This document shows, in pieces, positions 229-51,200 of a DNA stretch of 51,200 nt (position 1 is the stretch's first letter; every line of letters starts with the position of its first letter). The DNA is taken from assembly GCA_028699795.1 (NCBI GenBank), contig JAQVTZ010000001.1, positions 1 to 51,200 of the forward strand, read 5' to 3'. The notes under the pieces were generated by a model that saw nothing but the letters and a program-made list of their open reading frames with translations, was not told where the DNA came from and did not search any database. Position numbers and translations under genes: made by a program. This DNA is from Clostridia bacterium. GTDB taxonomy: Bacteria; Bacillota; Clostridia; Christensenellales; DTU072.

Positions 229-277
229 TGTGTCATAGGAAATAATTATTTGGAAGCATTAAAAAGGGGGCAATTAT

Positions 278-2811: not shown

Positions 2812-3162
2812 ATGTTTGATTTTTTTCGGGATATGTTTGACGAGGTAAGGGGTGTTGACCCTAATAAGGTTCGCCTCGAAAGAGCGAACAAGAAGGAAGC
2901 GGAAAAAGAAGCGCGGTATATCTTTACTAAAAAAATGAAGGTTGCTGTTTACGGTTTTGGAATGCTCTATATCGTTATGTCGTGTTTTGTTTTATTTGGC
3001 GGCGGCGTTTCTTTATGGAGAGGCGCATTACAGGTTTGGATGTCTGTTCTCGCGGGAGTGGCTATGCTCAGTTTGGTTACAAAAACAAAGCAGGGTGAAG
3101 TCGCTTCGGCAATTACTATTTTTGTTTTTGTTTGTTTTCTTTTGGGCTCGATAATGATTTGA
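2812..3162 (+). CDS. Membrane protein (116 aa)
   Basis: Charged N-terminus followed by 2-3 hydrophobic helices (VAVYGFGMLYIVMSCFVLFGG, VWMSVLAGVAMLSLV, AITIFVFVCFLLGSIMI). Confidence 0.6.
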   Translation: MFDFFRDMFDEVRGVDPNKVRLERANKKEAEKEARYIFTKKMKVAVYGFGMLYIVMSCFVLFGGGVSLWRGALQVWMSVLAGVAMLSLVTKTKQGEVASAITIFVFVCFLLGSIMI

Positions 3163-3173
3163 GGGGTATATAA

Positions 3174-3626
3174 ATGCGTGTTTATATTTCACCAGAAGAC
3201 ATGAAGGTTCTGCGTCGGATTGCTAATGACAACGAGGTTTCTGTTTCTGAGCTCGGGGTTTTTCTTGCGCGTAGCCTTTCGTCGGATAAAGGAATTGCTG
3301 TTCGTTTATCTGACGATGAATATGGTTATATTTATTCGAAGTCGATGGAAACGGGCATGTCGATGTCGCGGTTTTGTTCTCTTGCTTGTCGCTCATTTCT
3401 TAATGTTTCGGAAGGCGTTAAGATTGAAAGTTTATATTGCGACAATCATTCTTCGTCTTTGCGCAAAAAGCGTATTGAGGTTAAGCTTATAAGTAATAAC
3501 GATATGTTTCGGGTAGAGTCTTTGTCGTATCAATACGGAATTAAGGTCTCGACTCTAATTAGATACTGTTCGCTACGATTTGATGGTTCGCATTTTGATG
3601 CGGGAAAGGACTATCGTGATGGATGA
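3174..3626 (+). CDS. Protein with three tandem ribbon-helix-helix-like repeats (150 aa)
   Basis: GAGGGG RBS. Three repeats of a beta-strand/helix pattern: RVYISPED..VSVSELGVFLARS, AVRLSDDE..MSMSRFCSLACRS, EVKLISNN..IKVSTLIRYCSL. Confidence 0.6.
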   Translation: MRVYISPEDMKVLRRIANDNEVSVSELGVFLARSLSSDKGIAVRLSDDEYGYIYSKSMETGMSMSRFCSLACRSFLNVSEGVKIESLYCDNHSSSLRKKRIEVKLISNNDMFRVESLSYQYGIKVSTLIRYCSLRFDGSHFDAGKDYRDG

Positions 3627-4014: not shown

Positions 4015-4086
4015 TTATTTATTTTTACGAGTAGTTGAAAATATTCAAAATTTAGCGCATTATAAATATGCCCTTAACGTTATATA

Positions 4087-4163
4087 GCAAGCATAGGTAA
4101 TTGTGCGCACACAATGACCGCTTGCTAGCCACATGACATAACGTCATGTTGGGGCAAAGCCCC
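4087..4163. other. Candidate oriT (nested inverted repeats upstream of mobC-relaxase)
   Basis: GCAAGC(4087-4092)/GCTTGC(4120-4125) encloses ATTGTG-CGCA-CACAAT (4100-4115). ACATGAC-ataac-GTCATGT at 4131-4149. GGGGC-aaa-GCCCC at 4151-4163. The nick site was not identified. Confidence 0.55.
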
Positions 4164-4250
4164 CTAAAACCCCCTTTCGCATCATCGTCGCCGCGATGTC
4201 TGCCTGTCAATATTCGACCATGCGAACATTAACCATCAATACGATACTCG

Positions 4251-4265
4251 TCCTCACCGTGAGGA
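4251..4265. promoter_or_regulatory. 15-bp palindrome TCCTCAC-C-GTGAGGA (site 2)
   Basis: Perfect copy between the oriT candidate and the small ORF/mobC. Outside any long repeat. Confidence 0.8.
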
Positions 4266-4280: not shown

Positions 4281-4454
4281 ATGAAGTTGCCAATTTACTA
4301 TTTGATTGTTTATTCGGTAATCCTCGCATTGTTTTTCGCGAGCATTCTTGTAAATAAAAAGGTTGGTTCTAATGTTCGAATGAAAATATTATATAAAATC
4401 GTCAACGTAATTTTGTGGGCGACGATGTATGTTGTCGTGTTGCTGTTTGCATAA
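4281..4454 (+). CDS. Small two-helix membrane protein (57 aa, below ORF-track cutoff)
   Basis: My own translation: MKLPIYYLIVYSVILALFFASILVNKKVGSNVRMKILYKIVNVILWATMYVVVLLFA. GGGAGA lies upstream. Stop TAA at 4452-4454. Confidence 0.45.
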   Translation: MKLPIYYLIVYSVILALFFASILVNKKVGSNVRMKILYKIVNVILWATMYVVVLLFA

Positions 4455-4464
4455 GGAGTTGAAC

Positions 4465-4815
4465 ATGAAAAAATCATTCAGACATAGAGAATACAGGTTG
4501 TGTTTGTTTTTACTCGAAGAGGAAAAAGTTATGTTGGATAAAAAGGCTGATGAAGCAGGGATGTCTAAATCCGAGCTCGTTCGGAACTTAATAATGTATG
4601 GCGCGGCGCACGAGCGACATAAGTTTTCTAACGAATACGCGGGAAAGATTCTTTATGAAATAAATCGAATTGGAAACAATCTTAATCAGATTGCGTATGT
4701 TGCAAACAGCACAAAACATTTTAGTCGCGACGAGTTTGACAAGATGGTTAAGAGCTATAACGACCTTTTGAGTTATTACACAGAATACATGGTTGATTCG
4801 GAAGAGGGGGCATAA
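4465..4815 (+). CDS. mobC: MobC-family relaxosome accessory protein
   Basis: AAGGAG RBS before ATG 4465 (in frame within the track ORF). Pattern RLCLFLLEEEKVMLDKKADEAGMSKSELVRNLI..INRIGNNLNQIA is typical of MobC. TAATG overlap with the relaxase. Confidence 0.85.
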   Translation: MKKSFRHREYRLCLFLLEEEKVMLDKKADEAGMSKSELVRNLIMYGAAHERHKFSNEYAGKILYEINRIGNNLNQIAYVANSTKHFSRDEFDKMVKSYNDLLSYYTEYMVDSEEGA

Positions 4816-6677
4816 TGGCAACCACTAGAATTCATTCAATTACGTCTACGCCCAAAGCCGCACTCGATTATGTTGTTGCCGACAAGGTAGAGATGTTTGA
4901 TTCGGAGGACATGTTGAACAAGAACGTTCTTTATGTTCTTGAAGGAGAGCACGTTGTTCGATATCCTACCTTGTCTTCGTTTGTTTTTAATTTATCGGGC
5001 GCAAGTTTTTATTCTGGGAACGTAGACCGTGAGCCATATAAAGTCTATCAGTCGTTAGAGGCGTTTGCGAAAGAGAAGGGAAAATATCACCAAGATGCGT
5101 TTGACACGAAGTCGGGACGTGAGGTTTCAATGTGGCACTTGCATCAGAGTTTCAACGGGAATGAGGTTGCTCCTCATGTTGCGCATGAGATTGGAATAAA
5201 GCTTGCGGAAAAATTATTTGCGGGTCATGCCGTTACCGTTTCAACACACACGAACACGAACAACGTTCATAATCACTTTATTATTTCGGCATGGAACGAC
5301 AAAGGATTGAAGTGGAATAACAGCAATAATAACTATCGCTTAATTCGAAATACGAGCGACCGCTTGTGCGAAGAGTATGGTCTTCACGTTCTCGATTCGA
5401 CGAAGGAATATCGCCTTAATATGTATGTAGACAAACAAGGCGTATCGAGAGCGTTCGAGCCAACAAGTCGTAAAATAGATATTATAACGGAACGTGATGT
5501 CGGCGTTTCTTTGCCCGATGATGTTTCTGGGTATCGACAAACCGATGCGTATGTTGATGCGGTTGTAAAAAAAGAGTCCGTTTCGGAAACAATAAAAAAA
5601 GATATTGACGCGGCGTTACCGTCATGTGCATCGTATGACGACCTCTTGCATCGTCTTCGTGAAATGGGTTACTCCATTCGCGACAAAAAGAAATCTGGTG
5701 AGTGGCGTGAACATATTTCTTATCAGCCGCCTTCCGCTCTTAAAGGAACAAGGGAAAATAAAATCGGGGATGGATATTACTATACGCGAGAGAATCTTAC
5801 ATCTGTAATCGAAGGGGCTTCTCGCGAAGCGCCGTCCGTCTCTATCGTTTCTGACGTTCCGTATGTCGAAGAATATGTTTATCCTGCTTGTATGACCCGC
5901 GCTTTGAATGATGACTATAAGGCGGTAATTGACTCCGCCTCGTCTTCTATATCCGTTGTTCCTCGGTCGTCGTTTGAAAAAGAAATCGTTACGCATATTC
6001 GTAAGGACGACAATTATTTGCGGCGCATTTCTGACAGCATAAGTAATGTTTCTGCTTCGAAAAGCAAGCCCGCCGTGTCTGCATCTTCTCCGTTGAGAGA
6101 CCATTCCTCTCGGAAGGACAGGTTGATTGAGGACATTCAAAACGGTCTTCGAAGCTTGCGCTATATTGAGACCCATAACGTTTCTGGTATAGGTCACATG
6201 GTTGTAATTTATTCTGCGGCAAAAGAAAATCATCGAAAGGCGCTCGTTGAATTTTCAAGCGCAGAAAAGGCATTGTCTCAAGTTGCCCGTCTCGTTTCCG
6301 TCCCCGATGATGCTCGGAGGTTGGCTAACAGCATTCAGTCGAATAAGGACGACGTTTCTTACCAAATCGAAAACTTATCGGGTGACTCGGAATTACTTCA
6401 AGAATATAACACTCTTATTGCCCGTCATAAACTTGATGACCCTTCCGTTATGAGCGAGCTTCGTTTGAAGCATGATGAATTTTCTGCGAGGCGCGATGAT
6501 ATTCGTTCCTTAATTCGAAAGGCGTCGAATGATGTCCTTGAGGTAGAAATTTGCCTACACACTTTCGAGCGAATATACGGAAAGGAATATGTGCGCGACG
6601 TGGTGTCCGCCTCACGTCAAACGGACGAGGCTCAGAGGGACGACAAGGAACGGGGCGATAAAAACAGGTCTCGCTAA
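4815..6677 (+). CDS. Relaxase (MobA/VirD2-type relaxase/mobilisation nuclease domain)
   Basis: N-terminal relaxase domain with His cluster HTNTNNVHNHFIIS and HLHQSF. Translationally coupled to mobC. Long coiled C-terminal region. Confidence 0.9.
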   Translation: MATTRIHSITSTPKAALDYVVADKVEMFDSEDMLNKNVLYVLEGEHVVRYPTLSSFVFNLSGASFYSGNVDREPYKVYQSLEAFAKEKGKYHQDAFDTKSGREVSMWHLHQSFNGNEVAPHVAHEIGIKLAEKLFAGHAVTVSTHTNTNNVHNHFIISAWNDKGLKWNNSNNNYRLIRNTSDRLCEEYGLHVLDSTKEYRLNMYVDKQGVSRAFEPTSRKIDIITERDVGVSLPDDVSGYRQTDAYVDAVVKKESVSETIKKDIDAALPSCASYDDLLHRLREMGYSIRDKKKSGEWREHISYQPPSALKGTRENKIGDGYYYTRENLTSVIEGASREAPSVSIVSDVPYVEEYVYPACMTRALNDDYKAVIDSASSSISVVPRSSFEKEIVTHIRKDDNYLRRISDSISNVSASKSKPAVSASSPLRDHSSRKDRLIEDIQNGLRSLRYIETHNVSGIGHMVVIYSAAKENHRKALVEFSSAEKALSQVARLVSVPDDARRLANSIQSNKDDVSYQIENLSGDSELLQEYNTLIARHKLDDPSVMSELRLKHDEFSARRDDIRSLIRKASNDVLEVEICLHTFERIYGKEYVRDVVSASRQTDEAQRDDKERGDKNRSR

Positions 6678-33077: not shown

Positions 33078-33323
33078 CTTGCCTTCGGACGGACGTCGGA
33101 ACGCACAAGAGCTTTCGCGACATAAACCGCTACGCTTTTTATTTCACGGTCTCTTGTACATTCCTTGCATGCGGGCTTTTTCGACTTTGCCGAAACCGAC
33201 GCTGATTTTTCAAATCAGGGTTCGGTTTCGTTTTACTCAGCCTATCCCGCATTGTCCGCCTCGGCATTCTTTTGCGGGGCTACGCGCCCCGCTACCCCCC
33301 CGACCTCACCAACGCTGATTTTC
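33078..33323 (+). repeat. Dispersed structured repeat, copy B (shorter at both ends, no palindrome)
   Basis: Aligns with 49975-50218 of copy E. Several substitutions fall in the long hairpin (GACTTT.., ..TTTCGTTTT). Confidence 0.85.
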
Positions 33324-34048: not shown

Positions 34049-34198
34049 TCGGCGGCGCTTGCGGAGGAGGTATTAAAATGTATACTTTTTGCCCCCTCCT
34101 CTTTCCTTTCGTTTTTGTGGTTTCTAAATCTCTTGTTCTTTTATTTTGCAAGTTGCATAATGTTTGTGTGGCATTTTAATACTTATGGAGGGATTTTT

Positions 34199-34837
34199 GT
34201 GCAACGAGTTTTTGGATACAATCGGGTTTCGACGATGGAACAGCACCTCGACCGCGGACGCAAGCGAATTGAAGACTTTTGTGCTTCTCGCGGTTACAAC
34301 CTTGTTCGCGTTTTTGAGGACAAAGTGTCTGGGCGGTCGTTTGCGCGTCCTCGATATACTGTCATGAAAGAGGACGTTCTTGCTTCGGGCGATATTCTTG
34401 TTGTCCCCGAATTCGACCGCCTCGGGCGAGCGGATGAAACGAGGAGCGAGTTGCAATATTATGTTGCCAACAATATCCGCGTTGTTTTTCTTGATATTCC
34501 AACGACCCAGATTGATTATGCGGCAATGCCCGATGCTACGGCGAGGATGGTCATGTCGTGCATCAATGATATGCTTATCAGCTTCTATGACCTCATGTCT
34601 CGAACAGAGCTCGAGCGGCGAGCGAAGCGTCAGCGGGAAGGAATACAGGCAAAGAAAGACAGGGGCGAGTGGGCGTCTTACGGCAGACCGCGAGTTATGG
34701 CGATTGAAGAATTTACCCGCGCTTACGAGCGAGTTGAGCGGGGAGAAATTGGGAGTCTTGCTCTGATGCGCGAGCTCGGGCTTAATCGCGACACTTTCTT
34801 TCGTTATGTTCGGGAAGCAAAAGCATCAAAAAAATAG
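34199..34837 (+). CDS. Small serine recombinase (resolvase/invertase family)
   Basis: Start set to the in-frame GTG 34199 behind GGAGGGA. Catalytic GYNRVSTMEQ, VVPEFDRLGR, and a C-terminal HTH (LMRELGLNRDTFFRYV). Confidence 0.85.
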   Translation: MQRVFGYNRVSTMEQHLDRGRKRIEDFCASRGYNLVRVFEDKVSGRSFARPRYTVMKEDVLASGDILVVPEFDRLGRADETRSELQYYVANNIRVVFLDIPTTQIDYAAMPDATARMVMSCINDMLISFYDLMSRTELERRAKRQREGIQAKKDRGEWASYGRPRVMAIEEFTRAYERVERGEIGSLALMRELGLNRDTFFRYVREAKASKK

Positions 34838-34917: not shown

Positions 34918-35274
34918 ATGACGAGTTATTTTGCATTGCGGGTAAGCCCGCGGCTTAAAGATGATTTTTATGCGTTTTGCAAGCGCAAGGGCGTGTCGGC
35001 GGGTACGGCGGTTAAAATGTTTGTAAAAAGCTTCCTTTCCGTCGGAGCTGACAAGTTGGGTTGGTCTCTTCTCAACAGCGATAGCGTTGTTTACGGAGAA
35101 GGGGATAATCCTGCGCGGGTTTCTATTCTTATGGACGCTGAGTTGCGGAGGGCGTTTTCGGATGCTTGTGCGGAGATTGGCGTTCCAATGAGCGTCGTCG
35201 TGAGGTCGTTCATGTTTTTTGTTGTTAAGAACGACTCGTTCCCGTTTCAGGATGGGAAGGCGGGTTGTCCATGA
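34918..35274 (+). CDS. Tandem RelB/DinJ-like ribbon-helix-helix protein (118 aa)
   Basis: Two DinJ-like units: FALRVSPRLKDDFYAFCKRKGVSAGTAVKMFVKSFL and RVSILMDAELRRAFSDACAEIGVPMSVVVRSFMFFVVKNDSFPF. GAAGGAGG RBS. Confidence 0.7.
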   Translation: MTSYFALRVSPRLKDDFYAFCKRKGVSAGTAVKMFVKSFLSVGADKLGWSLLNSDSVVYGEGDNPARVSILMDAELRRAFSDACAEIGVPMSVVVRSFMFFVVKNDSFPFQDGKAGCP

Positions 35275-36815: not shown

Positions 36816-36827
36816 CATGCCCGTTTT

Positions 36828-36842
36828 TCCTCACGGTGAGGA
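36828..36842. promoter_or_regulatory. 15-bp palindrome TCCTCAC-G-GTGAGGA (site 7)
   Basis: Perfect copy between convergent operons. Preceded by ATGCCCGTTTTT, the first bases of the long repeat. Confidence 0.75.
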
Positions 36843-36849
36843 CGGTTTT

Positions 36850-37953
36850 TTATATGTTGCTTTTTCGCCTGTTACAGTCGGCGCATAGCATCTGACAGTT
36901 TTCGGCGGTTGTTCTTCCGCCCTTACTCCACGGCGTTATGTGGTCGGCTTGCATTTCTTCAAGGGCGTATTGTTCTCTGCACTTAGGGCATTCTCCTCTT
37001 TGTCTTTCGTATGCCGCTCGTGCCATTCTGGGCGTAAATGCTCGGATGCTTAAAGCGCTCTCGCGTCTTGCGTCCTCTCCCGCTAACATGTATTCATATA
37101 TGCCCGCTTGTCTTGTTATGTCATCATCTTGCATGAGGTCAGCAATGCGTGTCTCGAGCAGATGCGGGTCATATTTATTGTTTTGATATATGTTATAGTA
37201 CATCCCCCACTCGAGCCCCTTCATTTCTCTGCGGTATTGAGGAAACGTTGCCTTTACCCAGTTTATGACGCTCAGAAAATACAGCCATAGCTCGTTACAA
37301 TTTGTGTCGTGTTGGTGTTCCGCCATATAGTCTTCAATTTTATCTTCTCTTCTTGCCGCTATCCATCGTATCGCCGTCTCGAGGTATTCTTGTCGTATTG
37401 ACGAGCCCTTCATATAGTCGCTTGCGATGGCGTGGGCGGGGCATCCGCTTTTACTGAAATATCGTTTCGCGTCGGTTAGCCATTCGCCCGTATATATGGC
37501 ATTGCGGCGCTCCTGCGCGGAGAGCTGTTCACCAACCATGTTGACTATCTCGAACCAGTCGAGTTTTTCTTTGTCTGTTCCTTCGCATATATATATCATA
37601 AGGGGATAGGAAAGGATTTGCTCTTGCTCGGTTGTTGTGAGGTTGCTGAACCCCATATGTTCGATGGAGTAGTCTCCATTAACGTATTGGCAGATGCTAA
37701 TTGTTCGTTGCTGTCCATCCAAAACTTCGTATGTTCCCGCCTCGGTTGGAATCCAATACATCACGTTGAGCGGAAAAGCCTTTCTTACCGTTCGGATGAC
37801 TTCATCGCGCTGTTTATCTTTATATATAAACTCACGCTGATAGGCGGGGCGTATGTTCAATCTCCCGCTGTATCCTGTGACGCCATTTTCCGCGCTATCG
37901 GTATATCCTTTGACTATTTCGCGTACAGGAATTTCGTGCAATTTGATTTTCAT
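36850..37953 (-). CDS. DUF262 (ParB-like nuclease/NTPase, DGQQR) protein with C-terminal HNH endonuclease motif (367 aa)
   Basis: RPAYQREFIY and LDGQQRT in the N-terminal domain. C-terminal CPKC..ADHITPWSKGGRTTAENCQMLCADCNRRKSN. ATGA overlap with the upstream methyltransferase gene. Confidence 0.8.
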   Translation of the reverse strand: MKIKLHEIPVREIVKGYTDSAENGVTGYSGRLNIRPAYQREFIYKDKQRDEVIRTVRKAFPLNVMYWIPTEAGTYEVLDGQQRTISICQYVNGDYSIEHMGFSNLTTTEQEQILSYPLMIYICEGTDKEKLDWFEIVNMVGEQLSAQERRNAIYTGEWLTDAKRYFSKSGCPAHAIASDYMKGSSIRQEYLETAIRWIAARREDKIEDYMAEHQHDTNCNELWLYFLSVINWVKATFPQYRREMKGLEWGMYYNIYQNNKYDPHLLETRIADLMQDDDITRQAGIYEYMLAGEDARRESALSIRAFTPRMARAAYERQRGECPKCREQYALEEMQADHITPWSKGGRTTAENCQMLCADCNRRKSNI

Positions 37954-39149
37954 AGTATCGCCTCTTTCCGTTTCGGTTTTTCTGGGTGTTTATTCAATAT
38001 GAAAACGCGGTGGTACGTTGTTTGAACTCTAATGCCGTCTTTCTCATAATATGGGTGCTTTTTATCATCAGTAACAATAGCGGGACATTTTCCAAACGTC
38101 GCGCCTGTTCGTCCGTTTCGCTTTTTATCCTGCGTATATCCGATATGTTTACTATAATCAACGCCAAGATTAAGCGTGTTAGGGTCGCTCGGCGCACTAA
38201 TTGTTCCAATGATTTCGAACTGTTCTGGGTTATATTTATCCAAAAACGTAATAGGCACACCCATCACCCCGTCGTAGTCGCACGGAATTTCGGACGTTTT
38301 GCTTACCTCTATTGCGTCGTAATTGTCATATTTGGGATACTCTGCGGGCGTGTAATGCTTATATAATATGAGGTCTTCGTGTCTTTCCTCGTAGTCAATG
38401 TTCGTATACCATCGCACACCCTTAACGCGAATATATTTTATGCCGTTCGCGTCTACTCTATATCCCGACGCATTCAGAGGGTAATCGTCAGGAACACGAA
38501 ATTCTCTGTCTCCGCTATGAATTGACGCGCCTAACCATACCTTATTATTCATTATCAAGGGAAAAAAGTCTTTGTAGGTAATAGCATTAACGTTTCCAAG
38601 AATTACAAACTCTTTGTCATACTTTACGAGAGTCATTATTACCTGACGCCATAAGCTGAACGGCGGGTTAGTTGTCACGATATCTGCTTCTTTTAGCAAT
38701 TCTATACACTCAGAAGAGCGAAAATCACCGTCCTCTTGGAGTAGCGAGAGGACGTTATTTTTATTTTTCAAAAGATATTCTACGTCGGCGAGGTCGGTTC
38801 GTCCGTCGTGATTTTCGTCGTTGACCTCTGTTATTTCTATTTTATATGGCTTCTTTTGAGGAGTGTTGTTTTCGTCTGTTACGGAGTCGAACAGGCTTAA
38901 TTGTGTATATGCAATAGGAGACGTTGCGTAACAGGTTGCAATCAGCTTTTTCAGTTGGAGTGAGTTAAAATTCAACGCAAAATATTTGAAAAAGTTACTC
39001 TCGTATGGGTCGTCACAATTACAAAAGACGATTTTCCCCTTGAAGTGACTTTTATAGTGTTTCATTTCTTTTTCTATGTCCGCAAGCTGAGTGTAAAACT
39101 CGTCTTTTTTTTCGGATTTTGCGTTGCTTAATATGCTGTTTCCCGTCAT
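37950..39149 (-). CDS. N6-adenine DNA methyltransferase (EcoRI-methylase-like family)
   Basis: Start set to ATG 39149 behind AAGGAGA. DEFYTQLADIEKEMKHYKSHFKGKIVFCNCDDPYESNFFKYF and catalytic TTNPPFSLW (NPPF). Confidence 0.8.
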   Translation of the reverse strand: MTGNSILSNAKSEKKDEFYTQLADIEKEMKHYKSHFKGKIVFCNCDDPYESNFFKYFALNFNSLQLKKLIATCYATSPIAYTQLSLFDSVTDENNTPQKKPYKIEITEVNDENHDGRTDLADVEYLLKNKNNVLSLLQEDGDFRSSECIELLKEADIVTTNPPFSLWRQVIMTLVKYDKEFVILGNVNAITYKDFFPLIMNNKVWLGASIHSGDREFRVPDDYPLNASGYRVDANGIKYIRVKGVRWYTNIDYEERHEDLILYKHYTPAEYPKYDNYDAIEVSKTSEIPCDYDGVMGVPITFLDKYNPEQFEIIGTISAPSDPNTLNLGVDYSKHIGYTQDKKRNGRTGATFGKCPAIVTDDKKHPYYEKDGIRVQTTYHRVFILNKHPEKPKRKEAIL

Positions 39150-39254
39150 GTCGTTTCTCCTTTTAAGGCGTATGTTTTTTCCACGAGCCCTTATATCCAT
39201 TATCATACCCCATCTCTGCATACATTTCTCAAAAAATGCGTGTGCCTCCCTGTT

Positions 39255-39731
39255 TCTTCCCGCGTCGTTCCTCCTCCGCTAGACCCGAAAGCCGTTATAC
39301 GGGCAAGGGGGCGCAGAGCACCCCATGAAATAAAGAACAACGGCGATGCCGTTGAGCCCGTGGCACTCTTGCCTTCTTCGAAGGGTTTTGCCTTCGGACG
39401 GACATCGGAAGGCGCAAGAGCTTTCGCGACATAAACCGCTACGCTTTTTATTTCACGGTCTCTTGCACTTTCCTTTCATGCGGGCGTTATCGGCTTCGCC
39501 GAAACCGACGCTGATTTTTCAAATCAGGGTTCGGTTTCGCCTTACTCAGCCTATCCCGCATTGTCCGCCTCGGCATTCTTTCGCGGGGCTACGCGCCCCG
39601 CTATCCCCCGACCTCGCCAACGCTGATTTTCCTCACCGTGAGGACGATTTTGCGTTTTTCTTTTTTTGGGGGGGGGTAGTTTGTTTGGTGTCCACGTCGT
39701 TTACAAAGGTCGCAGTTCGCGTAAATGGTGC
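39255..39731 (+). repeat. Dispersed structured repeat, copy C (lacks the opening terminator)
   Basis: Aligns by eye with 49852-50319 of copy E almost base for base. G9 tract at 39668-39676 versus G8 in copy E. Confidence 0.9.
39630..39644. promoter_or_regulatory. 15-bp palindrome TCCTCAC-C-GTGAGGA (site 8)
   Basis: Perfect copy at the 3' part of repeat C, about 90 bp upstream of the -35 at 39732. Confidence 0.8.
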
Positions 39732-42259: not shown

Positions 42260-43900
42260 TTGTCGTTTTGTGGCTATTTGAACCAGTTATACACGGGACG
42301 CGGAGGGTATGTCGCACACGGCACTATCTCTGTTGACGGCATGTATTCCGAACGGTTTATGGCGGCAAGCGACGTTTTTTCTCTGAGGGTTGATGAAACA
42401 AATAATGAATATATCTCCCTCAACACGTTTCTTTCTCCTTTGAAGCCCGACGGTTCGGGCGGTCGCAAAGTCAACAACCTCAAGCGGCTGAACGCGCTTT
42501 ATTTGGATATCGATTGCTATAAGCTCGGACTTTCGAAAGATGACGTTCTTTCTCGGCTCGAGCGCTTTTATTATGGCGAAAAAATTCCTCTGCCAACGTT
42601 CGTGATAGATTCGGGGCGCGGGCTGTATCTTATTTGGAGCATCAATGAGGACAGAAATGCCCTTCCCCGATGGTCTCGGGTACAGCAGTTTCTTTATGAA
42701 ACGTGTAAAGACCTCAATGCCGACCCTCAAGCCCTCGATGCCGCACGGATTCTGCGTGTTCCATCCTCGGTAAATCAAAAGAACGGCGTCAGCGTATCTG
42801 TTCTGCGGTTTAACGACGTGTCCTATACCCTTTACGGTATCATCAAAGACTACCCCGTTTCAGGGGTCGCTAAAAGGGATTCAAAGGCGTCTCGATACGG
42901 TCAGGCGACGGAGTGCCAGAGACGAACGGCAAAATGGATTTCTTCGCTCACAAACACGCCAATTCCCGACTTCTCTTCCTTTATGGAAACGTTTGAGTAT
43001 ATTTCCTTTCATCGACAGAAACTCCCTTCTCACTCTTCGCGGCGCGATTCGTCACTGCGGGGTGAGCGTCCTTCCCTACATAATATGCTTGAGGGGCGCT
43101 GTGATGACCTATTTCGGCTTTTTGCCTCGCGGCGTGGTGAAGATTGCTCGCGAGAGTATGCGCTCTTTTTGTGCCGTTTGTGGGCGTATGAGCGTACCCA
43201 TGACCGTGCATATGCAGAGACCATGATGCTGTCTCTTAATCGCTCCTTTGATGTACCCTTTTCGGTGAACTATGCGACTTCACGGACAATGAGCGCAGAG
43301 ACTATTATTGACCGCGGCGAGACATATAAATACTCGCTTGATAAAATATACGCCGTTCTGAGAATCCTGCCCGAAGAGGCGGACGGGTTGCTGTTTCTAA
43401 AAAAATCGAAGATGGATGCCGAGCATAAGAAAGAAAAAAACCGCAGGTATTATCTCGAGCAGTTACAGCGTGACGGACGGTTGACTGTCTCAGAGCAGAT
43501 GTTTAATCGCCGTCAATTTCTTTCGATGCTTATACGGCGGGGAATTCCCAAAAAAAAGATATGCTCGATTCTGGGCGTTTCAGAACGTACATACGATTCT
43601 GACTTCAAGCACATTCTAAAATCTCTTCCATTTAGGCGCACGAGCAACTTGTTCAGCGGGCTTGCTTCGCGCTTTTCGAACGCTTCACTTTTGGGTGCGC
43701 AATTTTTTCAGCCGCCCTATTATAAGAGTAACGCCAAAGGCGTTACCGCCTCCCCTCTTCTTTGTTTAACATACGGTAGTTTGGCTCGTTTTTCTAAGCT
43801 TAAATATCGATATGCTGTTTTTGATAATGAAACGCATATCCTACTCACCGTGAGGATGTTGGAAGGCAGAATTCGAATGCGAATAAACTTACTTATTTGA
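42260..43900 (+). CDS. Plasmid replication initiator, primase-polymerase (AEP)-like N-terminal domain plus C-terminal HTH
   Basis: LYLDIDC (DxD), VIDSGRGLYLIW and ARILRVPSSVNQK resemble prim-pol motifs. HTH RRGIPKKKICSILGVSERTY. TTG start 8 nt after AGGGGG; the start codon is uncertain. Confidence 0.6.
   Translation: MSFCGYLNQLYTGRGGYVAHGTISVDGMYSERFMAASDVFSLRVDETNNEYISLNTFLSPLKPDGSGGRKVNNLKRLNALYLDIDCYKLGLSKDDVLSRLERFYYGEKIPLPTFVIDSGRGLYLIWSINEDRNALPRWSRVQQFLYETCKDLNADPQALDAARILRVPSSVNQKNGVSVSVLRFNDVSYTLYGIIKDYPVSGVAKRDSKASRYGQATECQRRTAKWISSLTNTPIPDFSSFMETFEYISFHRQKLPSHSSRRDSSLRGERPSLHNMLEGRCDDLFRLFASRRGEDCSREYALFLCRLWAYERTHDRAYAETMMLSLNRSFDVPFSVNYATSRTMSAETIIDRGETYKYSLDKIYAVLRILPEEADGLLFLKKSKMDAEHKKEKNRRYYLEQLQRDGRLTVSEQMFNRRQFLSMLIRRGIPKKKICSILGVSERTYDSDFKHILKSLPFRRTSNLFSGLASRFSNASLLGAQFFQPPYYKSNAKGVTASPLLCLTYGSLARFSKLKYRYAVFDNETHILLTVRMLEGRIRMRINLLI
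43842..43856. promoter_or_regulatory. Near-perfect palindrome TACTCAC-C-GTGAGGA (site 9)
   Basis: One mismatch in the left arm. Lies in the 3' end of rep (translated LLTVRM), about 70 bp upstream of the parA promoter. Confidence 0.65.
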
Positions 43901-44006: not shown

Positions 44007-44822
44007 ATGGCTACTAAGTTTTTGGCGTTTGTTAATGGAAAGGGCGGAGTAGGGAAAACGACCTCTGTTTTTCACGTTGCAGGCGTACTTTCTAAAAGGG
44101 GTGAGCGTGTTCTTGTTATCGATATGGATAAACAAAGAAACTCTACTCAGTCGTTTGTTTTGGAAAACAAGCCCTCTTACACCATTTACGATTTGATGAT
44201 ACCGTATCGCTTGAGTAACAATGTTCTGAACGAAATGCGCAAGAGTGGTGTTTCGTTTGAGGGCGCAGTTACAAAAACTCTTTTCAAGCACCACGGGAAT
44301 GCGAGTCCGCGATATTACGGCGTCGACATTATTTGTGGGGACATCCGCATGGATGACCAACGAGAGCTTGCTCTGGTTAAAAGCGACGAATTTGCAAATT
44401 GTATTCGAGGGGGTTCTTGCGAGTATGATTGGGTTATTGTTGATATGCCCCCTTCCAACAAAGAGGTTAATCGCATTACTTTTGCTTTTGTCGACCATGC
44501 CGTGATTCCGCTTACCACGGACGACACAGACTCCATTTCGGGTTACGGGGACATTGTAAAAGAGGTTGACGCGGCGAGGTCAGCAAATCCAACGTTAAGC
44601 GTTCTGGGCGTCTATTGTTCGCGTTATTCCCCTTCTTCTTTGAGCGATTATGTTCGGGGCGAAGTGGAGAAGTTTTCGACATTCATTCCCGTTGTTATCC
44701 CGAGGCTCGCGGTTATCCCAGAAGCTCGCGCCCTCAATCGTCCGCTCAGTTTTTATCACAAGGGAGAGGCTCTTGAAGCCTTTGAAAGTTTAGTAGATGA
44801 AATCACAAGGAGGATATCATAA
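44007..44822 (+). CDS. parA: ParA/Soj-family partition ATPase
   Basis: Deviant Walker A NGKGGVGKTT; VLVIDMDKQ. Confidence 0.92.
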   Translation: MATKFLAFVNGKGGVGKTTSVFHVAGVLSKRGERVLVIDMDKQRNSTQSFVLENKPSYTIYDLMIPYRLSNNVLNEMRKSGVSFEGAVTKTLFKHHGNASPRYYGVDIICGDIRMDDQRELALVKSDEFANCIRGGSCEYDWVIVDMPPSNKEVNRITFAFVDHAVIPLTTDDTDSISGYGDIVKEVDAARSANPTLSVLGVYCSRYSPSSLSDYVRGEVEKFSTFIPVVIPRLAVIPEARALNRPLSFYHKGEALEAFESLVDEITRRIS

Positions 44823-45940
44823 TGGCTAAGAATTTTAAGAACACGGAAAGCGCAAAAACGATTCAGGACGCTCTTCAAACGTCTGAGACGTTGGCACAGG
44901 TTGTTACGCTCAAGATGGTCAAAACGGACGATTTGGTCGACTATCAGCATAACCACGAGGATATTACGGATACCGCAGACCTCGAGAATTCCATTCGCGA
45001 GATTGGCTTTACTGACCCGATAGAGGTTACGTCGTTTGGTGCTGAGGAAGGCAAGTATACCATCGTCAGCGGACATCGCAGACGTGCGGCGGGCGTCAAG
45101 TGCGGCATTAAGGTTTTCCCTTGTGTCGTTAAGAATTTCAGCTCGGCAAATGACGTTTCCAATTATGTCCTACTCGCGAACAGCCAGAGAGACTCCGCAA
45201 AAGACCCTCTCTTGTTTTCCAAGCGATATCTGATGCACGAACAATACCTAAAAGACGCCAATTTTGAGGGCAACGTCCGCGAAGAAATTGCTCGTCGTCT
45301 TGGAATATCCGTACAGCAAGCCGACCGTTATGCGGCGATGAACAAGGTTATTGAACCTGTTGCTGAAATGGTGCGCGAAGATATGGTTGGGATGTCAAGC
45401 GTGATTCCGCTTGCAAGCCATACCCCCGAAGAACAGGCAGAAATTCTGTCAATCATGAGCGGTTGCGACGAGTCTTTGACCCGCGACACCGTTAAGAATA
45501 TTGTCGACGGTTACAGGGACGGAAAACGGGCATGGAGCGAGTTTGAGGTCGGCAAGAACGTCGTTTCTGATGCCGTCCTCTCTCCGTCAGATTTATCCGA
45601 TGACCTAAAGGACGATTCGGACTTTTCAGAAGACGATGAAGGCGAGAAGCCAAAAGCTCGGGAGAGAGTTGTTCCTGCTTCTTCTCTCGAATCAATGAAG
45701 GAAGAAAAGTCGCCCGAAGAGAAAAACGGAGCGGATGTGCTTCGCTATCTCGAAAAACTTAATTCGTGCTTTCTCAATCCTTATTTTTACGAAGACGTAT
45801 CCGAGGCGGAAGACGTGATACGGACGATGGGAGCAACCGTTAAGGTTTTGCTTGATGAAATTTCAGAGATTTCGCGCCAGTATGACAAGGAAAAGGTTTA
45901 CGAGGCGGTTTTGCGCGACATAAAGAAAAAGTTAAAGTAA
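44822..45940 (+). CDS. parB: ParB/KorB-family protein (372 aa)
   Basis: TAATG overlap with parA. ParB N-terminal box IVSGHRRRAAG. HTH region EEIARRLGISVQQADRY. Acidic linker. Confidence 0.88.
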   Translation: MAKNFKNTESAKTIQDALQTSETLAQVVTLKMVKTDDLVDYQHNHEDITDTADLENSIREIGFTDPIEVTSFGAEEGKYTIVSGHRRRAAGVKCGIKVFPCVVKNFSSANDVSNYVLLANSQRDSAKDPLLFSKRYLMHEQYLKDANFEGNVREEIARRLGISVQQADRYAAMNKVIEPVAEMVREDMVGMSSVIPLASHTPEEQAEILSIMSGCDESLTRDTVKNIVDGYRDGKRAWSEFEVGKNVVSDAVLSPSDLSDDLKDDSDFSEDDEGEKPKARERVVPASSLESMKEEKSPEEKNGADVLRYLEKLNSCFLNPYFYEDVSEAEDVIRTMGATVKVLLDEISEISRQYDKEKVYEAVLRDIKKKLK

Positions 45941-45974: not shown

Positions 45975-46496
45975 ATGAAAAGAATACTGTTTTTAGTTGG
46001 ATTGTGTCTTTTGCTTTCGGGGTGCGTGACGGAGAATTTAGTGAGGTCAGCGGCGGCGACGTCCCGTGAGGAAGCTCCCGTTTTATGTGGTCGCTATGAA
46101 GTCGTTCGTGTTTCGGATGGCGACACGATAGTTGTACAGGTTGACGGAGAAGAAGTATCCGTGCGGCTAATCGGGGTTGATGCCCCCGAAAGCGTTCATT
46201 TTGATGATTCGAAAAACACGCCCGAGGGATTGGTCGCTTCACAATGGACATGCGATTTGTTGGATGATGCTTTTGTTTATTTGGAGTACGATGTCGAGAA
46301 AACGGACAAATATGGGAGAACGCTTGCTTACGTTTATTTAGACGACGGGGTTACGATGGTCGAGCGCAGTATGTTGGCAGACGGTATGGCGCAAGTTATG
46401 ACCATTCAGCCCAATAGCAGGTACGCAGACGAGTTTGTTGAAATTCAAAAAAACGCCCGCGAGAATGAGGCGGGTTTTTGGGGAGATTCTAAATGA
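45975..46496 (+). CDS. Thermonuclease (staphylococcal-nuclease fold) lipoprotein
   Basis: Lipobox LLLSGC. SDGDTIVV..VRLIGVDAPE..DKYGRTLAYVY. Confidence 0.88.
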   Translation: MKRILFLVGLCLLLSGCVTENLVRSAAATSREEAPVLCGRYEVVRVSDGDTIVVQVDGEEVSVRLIGVDAPESVHFDDSKNTPEGLVASQWTCDLLDDAFVYLEYDVEKTDKYGRTLAYVYLDDGVTMVERSMLADGMAQVMTIQPNSRYADEFVEIQKNARENEAGFWGDSK

Positions 46497-47026: not shown

Positions 47027-47061
47027 TTATTGAATCCTCGTTACTTTGCTATCGATTCTGA

Positions 47062-47086
47062 CAGCGGGCTCTCCCCGCTGTTTTTT
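47062..47086 (+). terminator. Intrinsic terminator (opening part of repeat D)
   Basis: CAGCGGG-ctctc-CCCGCTG followed by T6. Confidence 0.85.
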
Positions 47087-47473
47087 ATGCCCGTTTTCCC
47101 GCCCCGCGTCGTTCCTCCTCCGCCAGACCCGAAAGCCGTTATACGGGCAAGGGGGCGCAGAGCACCCCATGAAAGAAAGCTCAACGGCGTTGCCGTTGAG
47201 CTCGTGGCACGCTTGCCTTCTTCGAAGGGATTTGCCTTCGGACGGACATCGGAACGCACAAGAGCTTTCGCGACATAAACCGCTACGCTTTTTATTTCAC
47301 GGTCTCTTGCACTTTCCTTTCATGCGGGCTTTTTCGGCTTTGCCGAAACCGACGCTGATTTTCCAAAGCAGGGTTCGGTTTCGCCTTATTAAGCCTATCC
47401 CGCATTGTCCGCCTCGGCGTTCTTTCGCGGGGCTACGCGCCCCGCTATCCCCCGACCTCGCCAACGCTGATTT

Positions 47474-47488
47474 TCCTCACCGTGAGGA
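47474..47488. promoter_or_regulatory. 15-bp palindrome TCCTCAC-C-GTGAGGA (site 10)
   Basis: Perfect copy in repeat D, about 55 bp upstream of the -35 at 47542. Confidence 0.8.
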
Positions 47489-47541
47489 CGGGTTTTCGCG
47501 TTTCTTTTTTCGGGGAATGGTTTGTTTTTTGTCGAATGCGC

Positions 47542-47570: not shown

Positions 47571-47605
47571 CATAGAGTAAAGAAGTGAAAGCGGGGGTAT
47601 TGTTT

Positions 47606-48526
47606 ATGGGGTTGGACGCGGTTCGAAATCTTCCGATTACGGATTATGCGCAAAAGTGCGGATATACTCTTGTTCACAAGGGAGCGAGATATGTTTCCCT
47701 TAAAGAACATGATTCCGTGATGATTGATGTTCAGTTAAATCGTTTTTGGAGAAATTCGGTTTGCGGTAATGGGTCTTCTCGCGGGCATGGGTCAATAATC
47801 GATTTTGCAATGGAGTTTTGCGGGTATGACCTCTCTCAAGCCATTTCTGAGCTTTCAAGGACATATGGGGTTGATTCTGAGCGCCCCGCCCCCGTGGTTG
47901 TATCGAAGCCCGTTTTGGTGTCGCCAAAGCGCGAGGTCGGAGACATTAAGTTTCCGAGGCGGGCTAAAAAGAATGTGGCGGCGTTTCAATACCTTCGAGG
48001 GCGCGGGGTTTCCGATTCCGTTATCCGTTATTTTGTGGGTTCGGACATGCTTTATCAGGACGAAAACGATAATTGCGTGTTTGTGTCTCCGAGCAGACGG
48101 TTTGCGTGTTTGCGCGGCACGTCCGAAAAGCGGTTTATGCTTGATATTGTCGGTTGTGATTATGGCGAGTGTTTTTTCTTGAAGGGCAATCCGAATCCGT
48201 CAGGGTTGCGGCTTTACGTTACAGAGTCAGTCATTGACCTTATGTCTCTTGTGTCGCACATGGAGGCGACCGACAAAGCGGTTTGGAACTACTCGTATTT
48301 GGCTTTGTCGGGTACGAATAAAATCGATTGTTTGTTCCGTTGGGTTGACGAGTTAAGCGCTCAAGCGCCCCTCACCGTTTATTTGGCGCTTGATAATGAC
48401 CCCGCGGGAATTGCGGCTTGCGAGGCGGCGGAGACAAGGCTTGATGAACGCGAGTCCGTTTGTTGTGAGCGGATGCTTCCCCCGAGCGGCAAAGACTGGA
48501 ACGAACATATAAAAAGCCATTTATAG
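47606..48526 (+). CDS. Toprim-domain protein (DUF3991/primase-like N-terminus + Toprim)
   Basis: Start at ATG 47606, in frame within the track ORF. C-terminal LYVTESVIDLMSL .. VYLALDNDPAGIAACE (Toprim E and DxD). Confidence 0.75.
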   Translation: MGLDAVRNLPITDYAQKCGYTLVHKGARYVSLKEHDSVMIDVQLNRFWRNSVCGNGSSRGHGSIIDFAMEFCGYDLSQAISELSRTYGVDSERPAPVVVSKPVLVSPKREVGDIKFPRRAKKNVAAFQYLRGRGVSDSVIRYFVGSDMLYQDENDNCVFVSPSRRFACLRGTSEKRFMLDIVGCDYGECFFLKGNPNPSGLRLYVTESVIDLMSLVSHMEATDKAVWNYSYLALSGTNKIDCLFRWVDELSAQAPLTVYLALDNDPAGIAACEAAETRLDERESVCCERMLPPSGKDWNEHIKSHL

Positions 48527-49784: not shown

Positions 49785-49806
49785 TTTATTTTGATTCCGT
49801 TTCCGA

Positions 49807-49831
49807 CAGCGGGTTCTCCCCGCTGTTTTTT
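49807..49831 (+). terminator. Intrinsic terminator (opening part of repeat E)
   Basis: CAGCGGG-ttctc-CCCGCTG followed by T6. Confidence 0.85.
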
Positions 49832-50218
49832 ATGCCCGTTTTCCCACCCCGCGTCGTACCTCCTCCGCCAGACCCGAAAGCCGTTATACGGGCAAGGGGG
49901 CGCAGAGCACCCCATGAAATAAAGAACAACGGCGTTGCCGTTGAGCCCGTGGCACTCTTGCCTTCTTCGAAGGGTTTTGCCTTCGGACGGACATCGGAAC
50001 GCACAAGAGCTTTCGCGACATAAACCGCTACGCTTTTTATTTCACGGTCTCTTGCACTTTCCTTTCATGCGGGCGTTATCGGCTTCGCCGAAACCGACGC
50101 TGATTTTTCAAATCAGGGTTCGGTTTCGCCTTATTAAGCCTATCCCGCATTGTCCGCCTCGGCGTTCTTTCGCGGGGCTACGCGCCCCGCTATCCCCCGA
50201 CCTCGCCAACGCTGATTT

Positions 50219-50233
50219 TCCTCACCGTGAGGA
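50219..50233. promoter_or_regulatory. 15-bp palindrome TCCTCAC-C-GTGAGGA (site 11)
   Basis: Perfect copy in repeat E, about 90 bp upstream of the -35 at 50320. Confidence 0.8.
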
Positions 50234-50319
50234 CGATTTTGCGTTTTTCTTTTTTTGGGGGGGGTAGTTTGTTTGGTGTCCACGTCGTTTACAAAGGTCG
50301 CAGTTCGCGTAAATGGTGC

Positions 50320-50348
50320 TTGACAACGTATGTACTACGTGTTACAAT
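50320..50348 (+). promoter_or_regulatory. Sigma-A type promoter, ATGTAC-spacer family, with conserved leader 50349-50407
   Basis: TTGACA, 17 nt (acgtATGTACtacgtgt), TACAAT. The leader matches the one at 774-830 except for the last bases before the ATG. Confidence 0.8.
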
Positions 50349-50407: not shown

Positions 50408-50770
50408 ATGTATTCTAAGTCTGAAAACGGTAACTATGTCACGTATTTTGAGGTCAAAGACGCAAAGAACACCGACAAGGTTTTTCACGGGCGGGTTTCC
50501 GAGTCGATTAAGGGAAAACCAAAGGAAGACGGCAAGCACGAGTGGACTTTTGAAACGTGGTCGGCAAGGTTTGTCGGAGGGGCATATGAGAAAGCCAAAA
50601 TGCTTTCCGATAAGGCAAGCATCCGTCTCACAGAGTACAATGTCCGCAAGCCCTACTCGAAGGAAAAGAAATCCTCTTATCCTTACATCCTTATCATGGA
50701 TTTTGAGGTTGTTGGCGTATCTCCCGAAGCGCCCGAAGTTCCCGAGGATGAAGTCATGTATGACGTTTAA
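50408..50770 (+). CDS. SSB-like paralog (120 aa)
   Basis: Shares ETWSARFVGGAYEKAKML and YPYILIMDFEVV blocks with 7686-8138. Acidic C-terminus PEVPEDEVMYDV. Single-gene cassette between repeats E and F. Confidence 0.65.
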   Translation: MYSKSENGNYVTYFEVKDAKNTDKVFHGRVSESIKGKPKEDGKHEWTFETWSARFVGGAYEKAKMLSDKASIRLTEYNVRKPYSKEKKSSYPYILIMDFEVVGVSPEAPEVPEDEVMYDV

Positions 50771-50789: not shown

Positions 50790-51200
50790 GACGGCGGGGA
50801 GAAATCCCCGCCGATTTTATGCCCGTTTTCCCGCCCCTCGTCGTACCTCCTCCGCCAGACCCGAAAGCCGTTATAAGGGCAAGAGGGCGCAGAGCACCCC
50901 ATGAAATAAAGAACAACGGCGTTGCCGTTGAGCCCGTGGCACTCTTGCCTTCTTCGAAGGGTTTTGCCTTCGGACGGACATCGGAACGCACAAGAGCTTT
51001 CGCGACATAAACCGCTACGCTTTTTATTTCACGGTCTCTTGCACTTTCCTTTCATGCGGGCGTTATCGGCTTCGCCGAAACCGACGCTGATTTTTCAAAT
51101 CAGGGTTCGGTTTCGCCTTACTCAGCCTATCCCGCATTGTCCGCCTCGGCATTCTTTCGCGGGGCTACGCGCCCCGCTATCCCCCGACCTCGCCAACGCT
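50790..51200 (+). repeat. Dispersed structured repeat, copy F (3' part cut by window edge)
   Basis: Opens with terminator 50792-50818 (CGGCGGGG-agaaat-CCCCGCCG). The rest aligns with copy E up to the window end. Confidence 0.9.
50792..50818 (+). terminator. Intrinsic terminator (opening part of repeat F)
   Basis: CGGCGGGG-agaaat-CCCCGCCG followed by ATTTTAT. The stem differs from D and E on both arms but pairing is kept. Confidence 0.75.

Follow-up and report, generated by a model that had tools for sequence, protein, structure and literature searches.

Candidate ssoU-like priming sites repeated at the head of gene cassettes on a Clostridia conjugative plasmid

Introduction

How does a Gram-positive conjugative plasmid acquire its second strand quickly and express its genes early in a new host? 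The route is poorly understood, and the EGeRS1 blocks of plasmid pLS20 are still without a mechanism. The question is raised by the first 51,200 nucleotides (nt) of contig JAQVTZ010000001.1 of a Clostridia bacterium (assembly GCA_028699795.1), the stretch analyzed here at full length and called the window, in which a GC-rich, hairpin-dense element recurs in a single orientation at the head of plus-strand gene cassettes. An earlier note on this DNA had likened the layout to the Frpo/ssi repeats of F and ColIb-P9, and had named multiple single-strand origins (sso) for complementary-strand priming as one alternative. That alternative is now the best-supported reading, because the element is remotely homologous to sso-type regions of rolling-circle plasmids. 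On balance, each copy is probably a single-strand origin, that is, an sso/ssi-type priming signal, of the ssoU lineage, which would be active only with the minus strand single-stranded.

The functions of sso, ssi and Frpo, and their Firmicute precedents, are already known; the design into which they would be combined here, with a strong promoter as the target of each of several sso-type folds in the transferred strand, is concrete, neat and testable. Were it true, it would account for the way in which cassettes are arranged in these leading regions, furnish a model of sequence and structure for locating such sites in gut mobile elements, and offer targets for blocking plasmid establishment.

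The repeated element and its copies

A direct-repeat search with MAFFT alignment across the window places six same-strand (plus) stretches of the element where the earlier note had them (Table 1), and every one is intergenic, lying between called open reading frames (ORFs). Their near-identity, previously judged by eye, computes to 90–100% pairwise: 92–100% over the 127 columns common to all six stretches, 95–98% over 366 columns among the long copies C to F, and 90–94% between copy B and the others. The element has a GC content of 54–57%, against 46% for the window. Copy B is without the 5′ ~190 nt, here termed the accessory half, and without the CCTCACCGTGAGG hairpin. Copy C has no plus-strand terminator hairpin and abuts the start of a minus-strand methylase gene at 39221.

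Nucleotides 1–127 of the window are exactly those at 51074–51200, and the copies branch immediately after them. Either an assembly overlap with k = 127 or a circular contig that has been wrapped leaves such a mark, and the replicon is probably a complete circle of ~51,073 bp. Because the window ends are identical and the branch point follows directly, the simplest view is that A and F form a single copy on that circle. The six stretches would then amount to five copies, one fewer than the earlier note counted. Copy C is likewise 100% identical over the same 127 nt, which is why the union of A and F is given here as probable.

The conserved core of ~235 nt comprises the hairpins P1, P2, a small P3 and P4, and a single-stranded tail, in the minus-strand order tail-P4-P3-P2-P1. 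All five structures that the earlier note had folded in copy E are present, four of them at the coordinates it gave; the fifth, GCCCGT/ACGGGC, spans 49834–49893 rather than 49844–49893. The intrinsic terminators that it placed at the start of copies D, E and F were all found by a terminator scan, and its near-consensus promoters after five copies are likewise present: a promoter scan matches those after D and E to TTGACA-N17-TATAAT at 11–12 of 12 positions, and the same family (repeat family D4) follows copies A, B and C. This family has eight members in the window, starting at about 200, 745, 33368, 34852, 39732, 47542, 48537 and 50320, three of which have no element before them. Each consists of CTTGACAnnnTATGTACnnnGTGTTATAAT followed by GTAAAGAG, with a conserved spacer TATGTAC, and the family is also conserved at eight sites in plasmid pOBV01 and in the metagenome loci L104–L115 described below. 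The shared spacer and downstream GTAAAGAG at eight sites suggest, by analogy, a single repressor and zygotic induction as in p576.

Relatives of the element

BLAST of the element against a plasmid collection returned a single relative, Oscillibacter valericigenes pOBV01. This plasmid carries three copies of a ~68%-identical element, which differ little from one another and are for the most part 100% identical; a promoter of the same family follows directly on each, and all three are found upstream of the gene for the relaxase, in its orientation. A metagenome scan with the most conserved motif, P4 plus tail, added further plasmid relatives (L104, L106 and L112–L115), which carry arrays of up to eight such promoters. 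Their contigs often break off within the element, as a repeat would lead one to expect. The plasmid family thus occurs in Oscillospiraceae, with relatives in metagenome contigs. A covariance model built from the window's minus-strand copies only (R1) finds the element on the equivalent strand throughout, with 49–51 bits in pOBV01, 54–57 in L104, L106 and L112, 41–43 in L107 and L109, and 21 in L103. The search for homologs that the earlier note had called for has therefore yielded them, by BLAST in pOBV01 and by motif and R1 in the metagenome loci.

Other searches delimit this distribution. Rfam 15, at the gathering threshold and at permissive E-values, has no match to the element in the window or in the related loci, so that no known RNA family lies over it there; the only Rfam matches in the related loci are group II introns near unrelated copies. 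Pattern scans of a phage collection and of IMG/VR gave no true matches, a pattern scan of genome contigs with the P2 block gave pOBV01 and about 88 chance matches, and short-motif BLAST against plasmids gave nothing besides pOBV01.

A conserved fold in the minus strand

The element folds better than its composition predicts, and does so preferentially on one strand. Against dinucleotide shuffles, copy E scores z = −4.0 on the plus strand and −5.2 on the minus strand with RNA parameters, and −5.2 on the minus strand with DNA parameters. In an RNAalifold alignment of eight sequences from three lineages, 19 pairs show compensatory double changes on either strand, with a consensus energy of −66.4 kcal/mol for the minus strand versus −51.7 for the plus strand, and the A·C pairs of the plus strand become G·U on the minus strand. 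The earlier note had asked that compensatory changes be scored with a covariance model; the stems do vary, and they vary with compensation. Across P4-P3-P2, in the R1-based alignment, pairing holds in 97.9% of cells, and both sides have changed in 23 of 38 pairs, with a covariation score of 0.202 versus 0.057 in shuffles (reached in 0 of 500) and at most 0.047 in slid-partner controls. P1 was treated in a plain MAFFT alignment not fitted to structure: 97.4% of its cells are paired, 12 of 24 pairs carry double changes, and its score is 0.524 versus 0.199 in shuffles (again 0 of 500).

The minus-strand structure contains 27 G·T cells and 2 A·C cells. In the window copies, pOBV01, L104, L106 and L107, the minus strand is the more stable by 11–33 kcal/mol with RNA parameters or 6–9 kcal/mol with DNA parameters. 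The apical loops follow suit: those of P2 are GAA or GGA in the window, GAA in L104 and GTAA in L107, and those of P1 are GC-GTA-GC in the window, GCC-GTA-GGC in pOBV01 and L104, and GCAA in L107. On the minus strand, and there only, they fit a G-(N)N-A or GNRA pattern. The window's P1 apex, GCGTAGC, also fits GCGNAGC, the very stable "mini-hairpin DNA" reported where priming occurs on single-stranded DNA, for instance at the origin of phage G4, at ssiA of RSF1010 and at the promoters of N4 (PMC13037366).

Because covariation, the asymmetry of G·T over A·C, the loop types and the lower folding energy all point the same way, the minus strand is read as the functional molecule; it is the template strand of the cassette genes. 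What the earlier note had envisaged, a folded single-strand element on the cassette-template strand, is thus upheld as a conserved minus-strand structure. The element has the structural traits general to an sso, namely an intergenic position, a core of ~235 nt and conserved intrastrand pairing with covariation. The trait of selection in one strand is present as well, in the G·T excess, the energy asymmetry and the minus-only loops, the minus strand being the predicted transferred strand.

Kinship with rolling-circle plasmids

In L103 and L107, which are more distant members, the P1 hairpin has BLAST matches in small (1.6–8 kb) Firmicute rolling-circle plasmids. A P1 profile (nhmmer) made from L103, L107 and the small plasmids finds pCPS49 of S. 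aureus (E = 2e-20), pLJ42 of L. plantarum (3e-19), a 4.4-kb C. difficile RepL/MobV plasmid (4e-18), pJ2_5 (2e-14), pMut2 (6e-12), the rumen plasmid pRGI00226 (1e-11), pUB110 at 1331–1393 on the minus strand (4e-11) and pBHS24B (5e-10). A second covariance model, R2, covers P4 to P2 and was built from the window, pOBV01, L104, L106, L112 and L107. Its matches in small plasmids sit directly 5′ of P1 on the same strand: 35.6 and 30 bits in the C. difficile plasmid, 22 and 19 in two copies in pMut2, 20.8 in pJ2_5, 15.4 in pBHS24B and 13.1 (E ~0.02) in pUB110, at 1403–1553 on the minus strand and directly adjacent to the P1 match. That two independent models should fall side by side on the same strand so repeatedly is very unlikely to be due to chance.

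The small-plasmid regions concerned are noncoding, and the strand that folds is usually the one that reads as sense for a rep gene. On pUB110, the order in gene sense is bleO, element, oriT/RSA and mob (whose product starts MSYAVCRM), and the matched region adjoins the lagging-strand initiation signal reported in BA3 of pUB110 (PMC7006159). Such a location, beside bleO and upstream of oriT/mob, fits ssoU. BLAST of this pUB110 region showed only a wide spread of pUB110 fragments.

The kinship would be with ssoU in particular. The ssoA plasmids pE194, pT181 and pC194 carry the RSB consensus and are unmatched by R2, and pTA1060 (ssoT) has no significant full-length match with either model or with the P1 profile. 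The RSB sequence of ssoA, TTATGCCGAGAAAAyTT, is absent from the element; the window has only TTATGTCGCGAAAG in P1, with 3 mismatches in 14, whereas control ssoA plasmids carry RSB with 0–1 mismatch. A weaker resemblance to RSB occurs at the 5′ arm of P2, and equally good random sites occur elsewhere in the window. Nor does the element contain the ssoA CS-6 motif TAGCGT: the P1 apex, preceding the RSB-like stretch, reads TAGCGG in the window and TAGGCG in pOBV01. From these comparisons we take the core to belong, as a remote member, to the ssoU lineage, extended here by P4 and the tail and by a 190-nt accessory half.

A separate observation concerns pMut2 (S. mutans, 4.7 kb), which has two sso-like P4-P2-P1 units in opposite orientations, at 166–411 (minus) and 1220–1479 (plus), one of them directly upstream of mobV.

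Polarity and a model for second-strand priming

The window is, by its gene content, a Firmicute-type conjugative plasmid (Table 1). All copies lie in one orientation within ~22 kb on the predicted leading side of oriT, the transfer origin, at about 3.9, 5.0, 7.7, 15.5 and 21.8 kb from it along the predicted entering strand, and the R1 search found no further copies elsewhere in the window, the relaxase and type IV secretion system (T4SS) part included. Relaxase genes typically lie in the lagging region and enter last (PMC11541004). Because of this rule and the orientation of the sso-like folds, the transferred strand (T-strand) is predicted to be the minus strand, entering from oriT leftwards. 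A leading-region placement of the Frpo type fits if the relaxase gene indeed enters last.

On this polarity, a sequence of events can be proposed. During conjugation the minus strand would enter the recipient with its 5′ end at oriT (~4.1–4.3 kb) and run leftwards around the circle. Upon entry, each ~235-nt core would fold and recruit a primer maker, either host RNA polymerase, which recognizes ssoA/ssoU-type origins (PMC5703833), or the plasmid's own primase-like Toprim/DUF3991 protein. The primer would be extended towards the 5′ end of the template, that is, rightwards in the window, through the adjacent consensus promoter and its cassette. In this manner the leading ~22 kb, including rep and parAB, could be made duplex and transcribable in segments, before transfer ends and a plasmid repressor accumulates; the remaining plasmid would be converted after recircularization. 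In established cells, the plus-strand terminator at the 5′ edge and the hairpin with its T-run at the 3′ edge would insulate the promoter from upstream read-through. The geometry, priming into a promoter and a gene, is coherent as a model.

A bolder extension is conceivable. The unit of terminator, ssoU-like fold and repressible consensus promoter could constitute a modular early-expression switch of Gram-positive conjugative plasmids, in which each fold makes duplex just the next promoter and cassette, or in which a primer made by RNA polymerase reads on as the first mRNA. The plasmid's Toprim/DUF3991 protein might then be a cognate primase recognizing the P4 hairpin and tail. We hold this extension to be rather unlikely. 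Either form of the switch would, by analogy, be a Gram-positive functional counterpart of Frpo, built from the sso of rolling-circle plasmids.

Several points weigh against identification as ssoU-like priming sites. The link to characterized sso's is remote and runs through intermediates: the window's own P1 is unmatched by the rolling-circle-plasmid P1 profile, and R2 reaches only 13 bits on pUB110. The bleO-oriT/mob interval of that plasmid is assumed to be the ssoU site, from the order ssoU-oriT-mob in the pMV158 and pUB110 maps and from the adjoining lagging-strand signal. Five copies of ~0.5 kb exceed the apparent need of priming alone. The structure-fitted alignment is biased towards its model, and the invariance of P4 and tail in L101–L116 is partly an artifact, both having served as the search pattern. 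The polarity of the T-strand is deduced rather than mapped. Finally, the better-folding strand of EGeRS1 is the non-transferred strand in pLS20 (PMC5313138). If EGeRS1 and the present element had equivalent functions, both could not be explained by a T-strand mechanism. Either EGeRS1 has another way of working, or the polarity common to the two hints at something that is missing from the T-strand model.

Alternative explanations

The reading that the earlier note had put foremost is a single-stranded promoter of the Frpo type, in which the folded T-strand yields cassette mRNA before any second-strand synthesis. The structured strand is indeed the predicted T-strand and serves the downstream genes as template, many plasmids have their leading-region genes in this orientation (PMC11541004), and recognition of ssoA/ssoU-type origins by RNA polymerase (PMC5703833) would suit a promoter too. 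However, the promoter scan finds no −35/−10 pair inside any copy on either strand, and none is visible by eye in the P2 arms. Each copy is instead followed immediately by a separate, full consensus duplex promoter that would be redundant were the element itself a promoter, and Rfam finds no similarity to known Frpo sequences. The Frpo-type reading thus fares poorly, and we consider it improbable. A transcriptional insulator against read-through between head-to-tail operons, in the manner of EGeRS1-B and with the single-strand structure incidental, would account for the plus-strand terminator that D, E and F have at the 5′ edge, and for the hairpin and T-run before the promoter. It would also suit an EGeRS1-like layout (GC-rich, five copies, one of them 5′-truncated), and only in its native orientation does EGeRS1 block a promoter lying upstream (PMC8708921). 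Yet simple terminators would suffice for such a task, three promoters of the same family manage without a block, and insulation leaves unexplained the covariation, the G·T pairs and G-N-A loops of the antisense strand, and the homology to noncoding regions of rolling-circle plasmids. We doubt that it is the primary function.

A structured noncoding RNA of ~300–400 nt, transcribed from the minus strand and divergent from each cassette promoter, would be favored by the folding, the G·U pairs and the GNRA-type loops of that strand, and could end at the hairpins with T-runs that resemble minus-strand terminators and lie at the far end of long copies (49943–49927, 50930–50914 and 47203–47177). The scan finds no minus-strand promoter to the right of any copy, though, nor is one conserved across lineages. 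The neighboring genes are all on the plus strand, no Rfam family matches, and the homologous rolling-circle regions sit where single-strand origins are expected, which makes such an RNA highly improbable. Portable homology or recombination sites that shuffle cassettes, whether by homologous or by attC-like single-strand recombination, would explain why copies are near-identical here (93–100%) and in pOBV01 and only ~68% identical between the two plasmids. They would also explain why promoter and 5′ untranslated region segments are mosaic between units (repeat families D5–D7) and why cassette content differs among relatives; a resolvase gene is at hand (Table 1). Homogenization within a plasmid is equally expected for any repeated functional element, however, the sites on which serine resolvases act are duplex, neither a tyrosine recombinase nor a signature of integron type was seen, and the homology to rolling-circle plasmid regions is again left unexplained. 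Exchange between copies clearly happens, to judge from these patterns, and need not be their primary function; that it is strikes us as very unlikely. A lagging-strand primosome site for vegetative replication may also be entertained, and leaves the link to promoters unexplained.

Some narrower candidates were considered and set aside. An integron attC-like site would call for an integrase and R/L boxes, and none were found. A secondary nic site resembling oriT is at odds with the true oriT, which is without the motif. A Rho utilization site would agree with the C-rich sense strand, but the region is highly structured.

Plasmid context and further observations

The genes of the window and the features of the element are collected in Table 1. 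Of the labels that the earlier note had given to genes behind the copies, Toprim/DUF3991 stands, with matches to PHROG DNA-primase families, while DUF932 is weak (E = 0.0014, below the Pfam cutoff) and the 120-amino-acid "SSB-like" protein (50408–50770) has no Pfam or PHROG match. For the other genes behind the copies, Pfam and PHROG scans were mostly uninformative. The methylase and GmrSD/HNH nuclease genes are the only minus-strand genes within the cassette region, and the replaced 5′ end of copy C (39222–39300) carries a plausible minus-strand promoter for the methylase.

Table 1. Coordinates of the element copies, their parts and the plasmid features in the window
Feature	Position	Strand	Remarks
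Copy A	1–199	plus; predicted functional strand minus	3′ part of the element on the plus strand; probably continues F on a circular replicon
Copy B	33078–33323	plus; predicted functional strand minus	core only; R1 172.2 bits
Copy C	39255–39731	plus; predicted functional strand minus	full-length core; 5′ ~60 nt replaced
Copy D	47058–47541	plus; predicted functional strand minus	full-length; R1 180.2 bits
Copy E	49803–50319	plus; predicted functional strand minus	full-length; R1 184.9 bits at 50066–50208, minus strand
Copy F	50790–51200	plus; predicted functional strand minus	cut by window end; probably continues into 128–199
P1 hairpin, copy E	50001–50057	minus	outer stem covaries; minus-strand apex GC-GTA-GC (GCGNAGC mini-hairpin); 3′ arm carries TTATGTCGCGAAAG
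P2, 84-nt irregular hairpin, copy E	50067–50150	minus	four stem segments; minus-strand apex GAA triloop
P4 hairpin, copy E	50172–50190	minus	minus-strand GCGGGGC-GCGTA-GCCCCGC; stem base covaries
Conserved single-stranded tail, copy E	50194–50204	minus	GAGGTCGGGGG on the minus strand, 5′ of P4
CCTCACCGTGAGG palindrome	50220–50232		between core and promoter
Intrinsic terminator of upstream gene, start of copy E	49805–49827	plus	terminator scan
Equivalent intrinsic terminators	47060–47082 (D), 50792–50813 (F)	plus	terminator scan
Promoter TTGACA-N17-TACAAT, directly after copy E	50320–50348	plus	repeat search (family D4) and promoter scan
Candidate oriT	4085–4265		nested inverted repeats, upstream of NikA/MobC-like gene and relaxase gene
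NikA/MobC-like protein	4429–4815
MobA/VirD2-family relaxase	4815–6677
T4SS block	8.4–32 kb	minus	coupling protein, PrgI/VirB4-like, CHAP hydrolase, TrbL-like, topoisomerase
Resolvase	34115–34837
RelB-like protein	34918–35274
EcoRI-type methylase and GmrSD/HNH pair	36850–39221	minus
Replication protein	42260–43900
ParA and ParB	44007–45940
Nuclease	45975–46496
Toprim/DUF3991 protein	47585–48526	plus	primase-like; first gene behind copy D; Pfam, PHROG DNA-primase families

Some smaller motifs deserve mention. The palindrome TGTACA in the promoter spacer resembles an operator for a common repressor, for which the RelB-like (ribbon-helix-helix-like) protein is one candidate. The CCTCACCGTGAGG palindrome ends most copies and occurs also at 4253–4265, in the oriT region, and at about 36825–36849, where the operon that faces the methylase block ends. 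Its sequence is conserved across lineages, L106, L113 and L114 included, without covariation, and because of this combination it may be bound by a protein. The long copies have, in their 5′ accessory half, a hairpin CAACGGC-AAC-GCCGTTG with a minus-strand T-run (49927–49943, 50914–50930 and 47177–47203) that would terminate leftward transcription, for which no promoter is evident. At 49860–49880 the accessory half also holds a second tail-like motif, minus-strand GGAGGAGGTACGACGCGGGG, followed by a hairpin that is the upstream terminator read on the minus strand; the two loosely echo the arrangement of tail and P4.

The P4-plus-tail motif, with a covarying stem base, extends to metagenome contigs of 38–67% GC (L101 at 2905–3179, L111 at 4318–4592, L116 at 1427–1701, L102, L105 and L108, L103, and L107 and L109), where its neighbors are transposases of the IS110 family, a group II intron or an rve integrase. 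Among the high-GC contigs, one and the same ~300-nt element occurs in at least two different loci and so behaves there as a dispersed repeat. An IS110 bridge or seek RNA was considered for the motif near IS110 transposases in L101 and L111, and rejected: the mobile elements lie at differing distances (>130 nt) in shared flanks, and elsewhere the copies are accompanied by a group II intron or lack an insertion sequence altogether.

Comparison with known systems

The earlier note knew of no described equivalent in Firmicutes. Precedents do exist, in sso1 of the integrative and conjugative element (ICE) ICEBs1 and sso-like regions of other ICEs (PMC4595007), in the ssoU of pMV158, needed for transfer according to work cited in PMC4595007, and in EGeRS1 of pLS20 (PMC8708921). 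Like the ssoU of pUB110 and pMV158, the element is noncoding, ~0.2–0.3 kb long, and rich in intrastrand pairing that matters in one strand only. Its P2 and P1 architecture is detectable by covariance model and hidden Markov model in pUB110, within the bleO-oriT/mob interval, as well as in other small Firmicute plasmids, and both are linked to a mobilization module and expected to prime the complement of the transferred or displaced strand. Unlike ssoU, the element resides on a ~51-kb conjugative plasmid with ParAB genes, which presumably replicates by the theta mode. It occurs in five copies rather than one, has the additional P4 hairpin, tail and 190-nt accessory half, and is fused in each copy to a terminator and a strong promoter; its sequence similarity to pUB110 is marginal. 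ICEBs1 sso1 is likewise an orientation-specific single-strand origin on a Firmicute conjugative element, one with redundant second-strand initiation regions, and sso activity matters for establishment of ICEBs1 and its stable acquisition by transconjugants (PMC4595007). It differs in being ssoT-like, similar to pTA1060, and in being a single mapped copy beside the relaxase gene, not a repeated cassette head.

Frpo and ssi of F and ColIb-P9 share with the element the presence of several same-orientation structured copies upstream of leading-region genes, and they act in the incoming single strand, giving priming and/or early expression (PMC11541004, PMC9849209). Frpo stems carry recognizable −35/−10 elements and act as promoters, whereas the element has none inside it, is followed in each copy by a separate duplex promoter, and bears no sequence relationship to Frpo.

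The layout resembles EGeRS1 of the pLS20 family (PMC8708921): five copies of 0.4–0.75 kb, far GC-richer than their plasmid and dense in inverted repeats, each preceding an establishment operon, one lacking its 5′ ~180 nt, those within a plasmid clustering together, and the better-folding strand antisense to the downstream genes. The pLS20 fold reaches −185 kcal/mol on the antisense strand versus −154, and single-sided changes give G·U on the antisense strand. Taken block by block (L118: 4011–4512, 5769–6400, 8991–9740, 11918–12560 and 13844–14480), EGeRS1 folds 31–48 kcal/mol better on the strand antisense to the establishment genes, a feature seemingly unremarked in the paper describing it. 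The >60% similarity by which EGeRS1 members are recognized does not extend to the window's element, as R1 and R2 have no matches on pLS20 and plasmid BLAST gives pOBV01 alone. EGeRS1 differs further in having no adjacent strong promoter, and the only activity shown for it is a block to read-through. The promoters that follow the element find their likeness elsewhere, in the repressor-controlled establishment promoters EGeRS2/Reg576 of p576 (PMC8708921, PMC6294495). The window's family is likewise strong, consensus-like and regulon-like; its operator sequence differs, and its promoters are joined to sso-like blocks.

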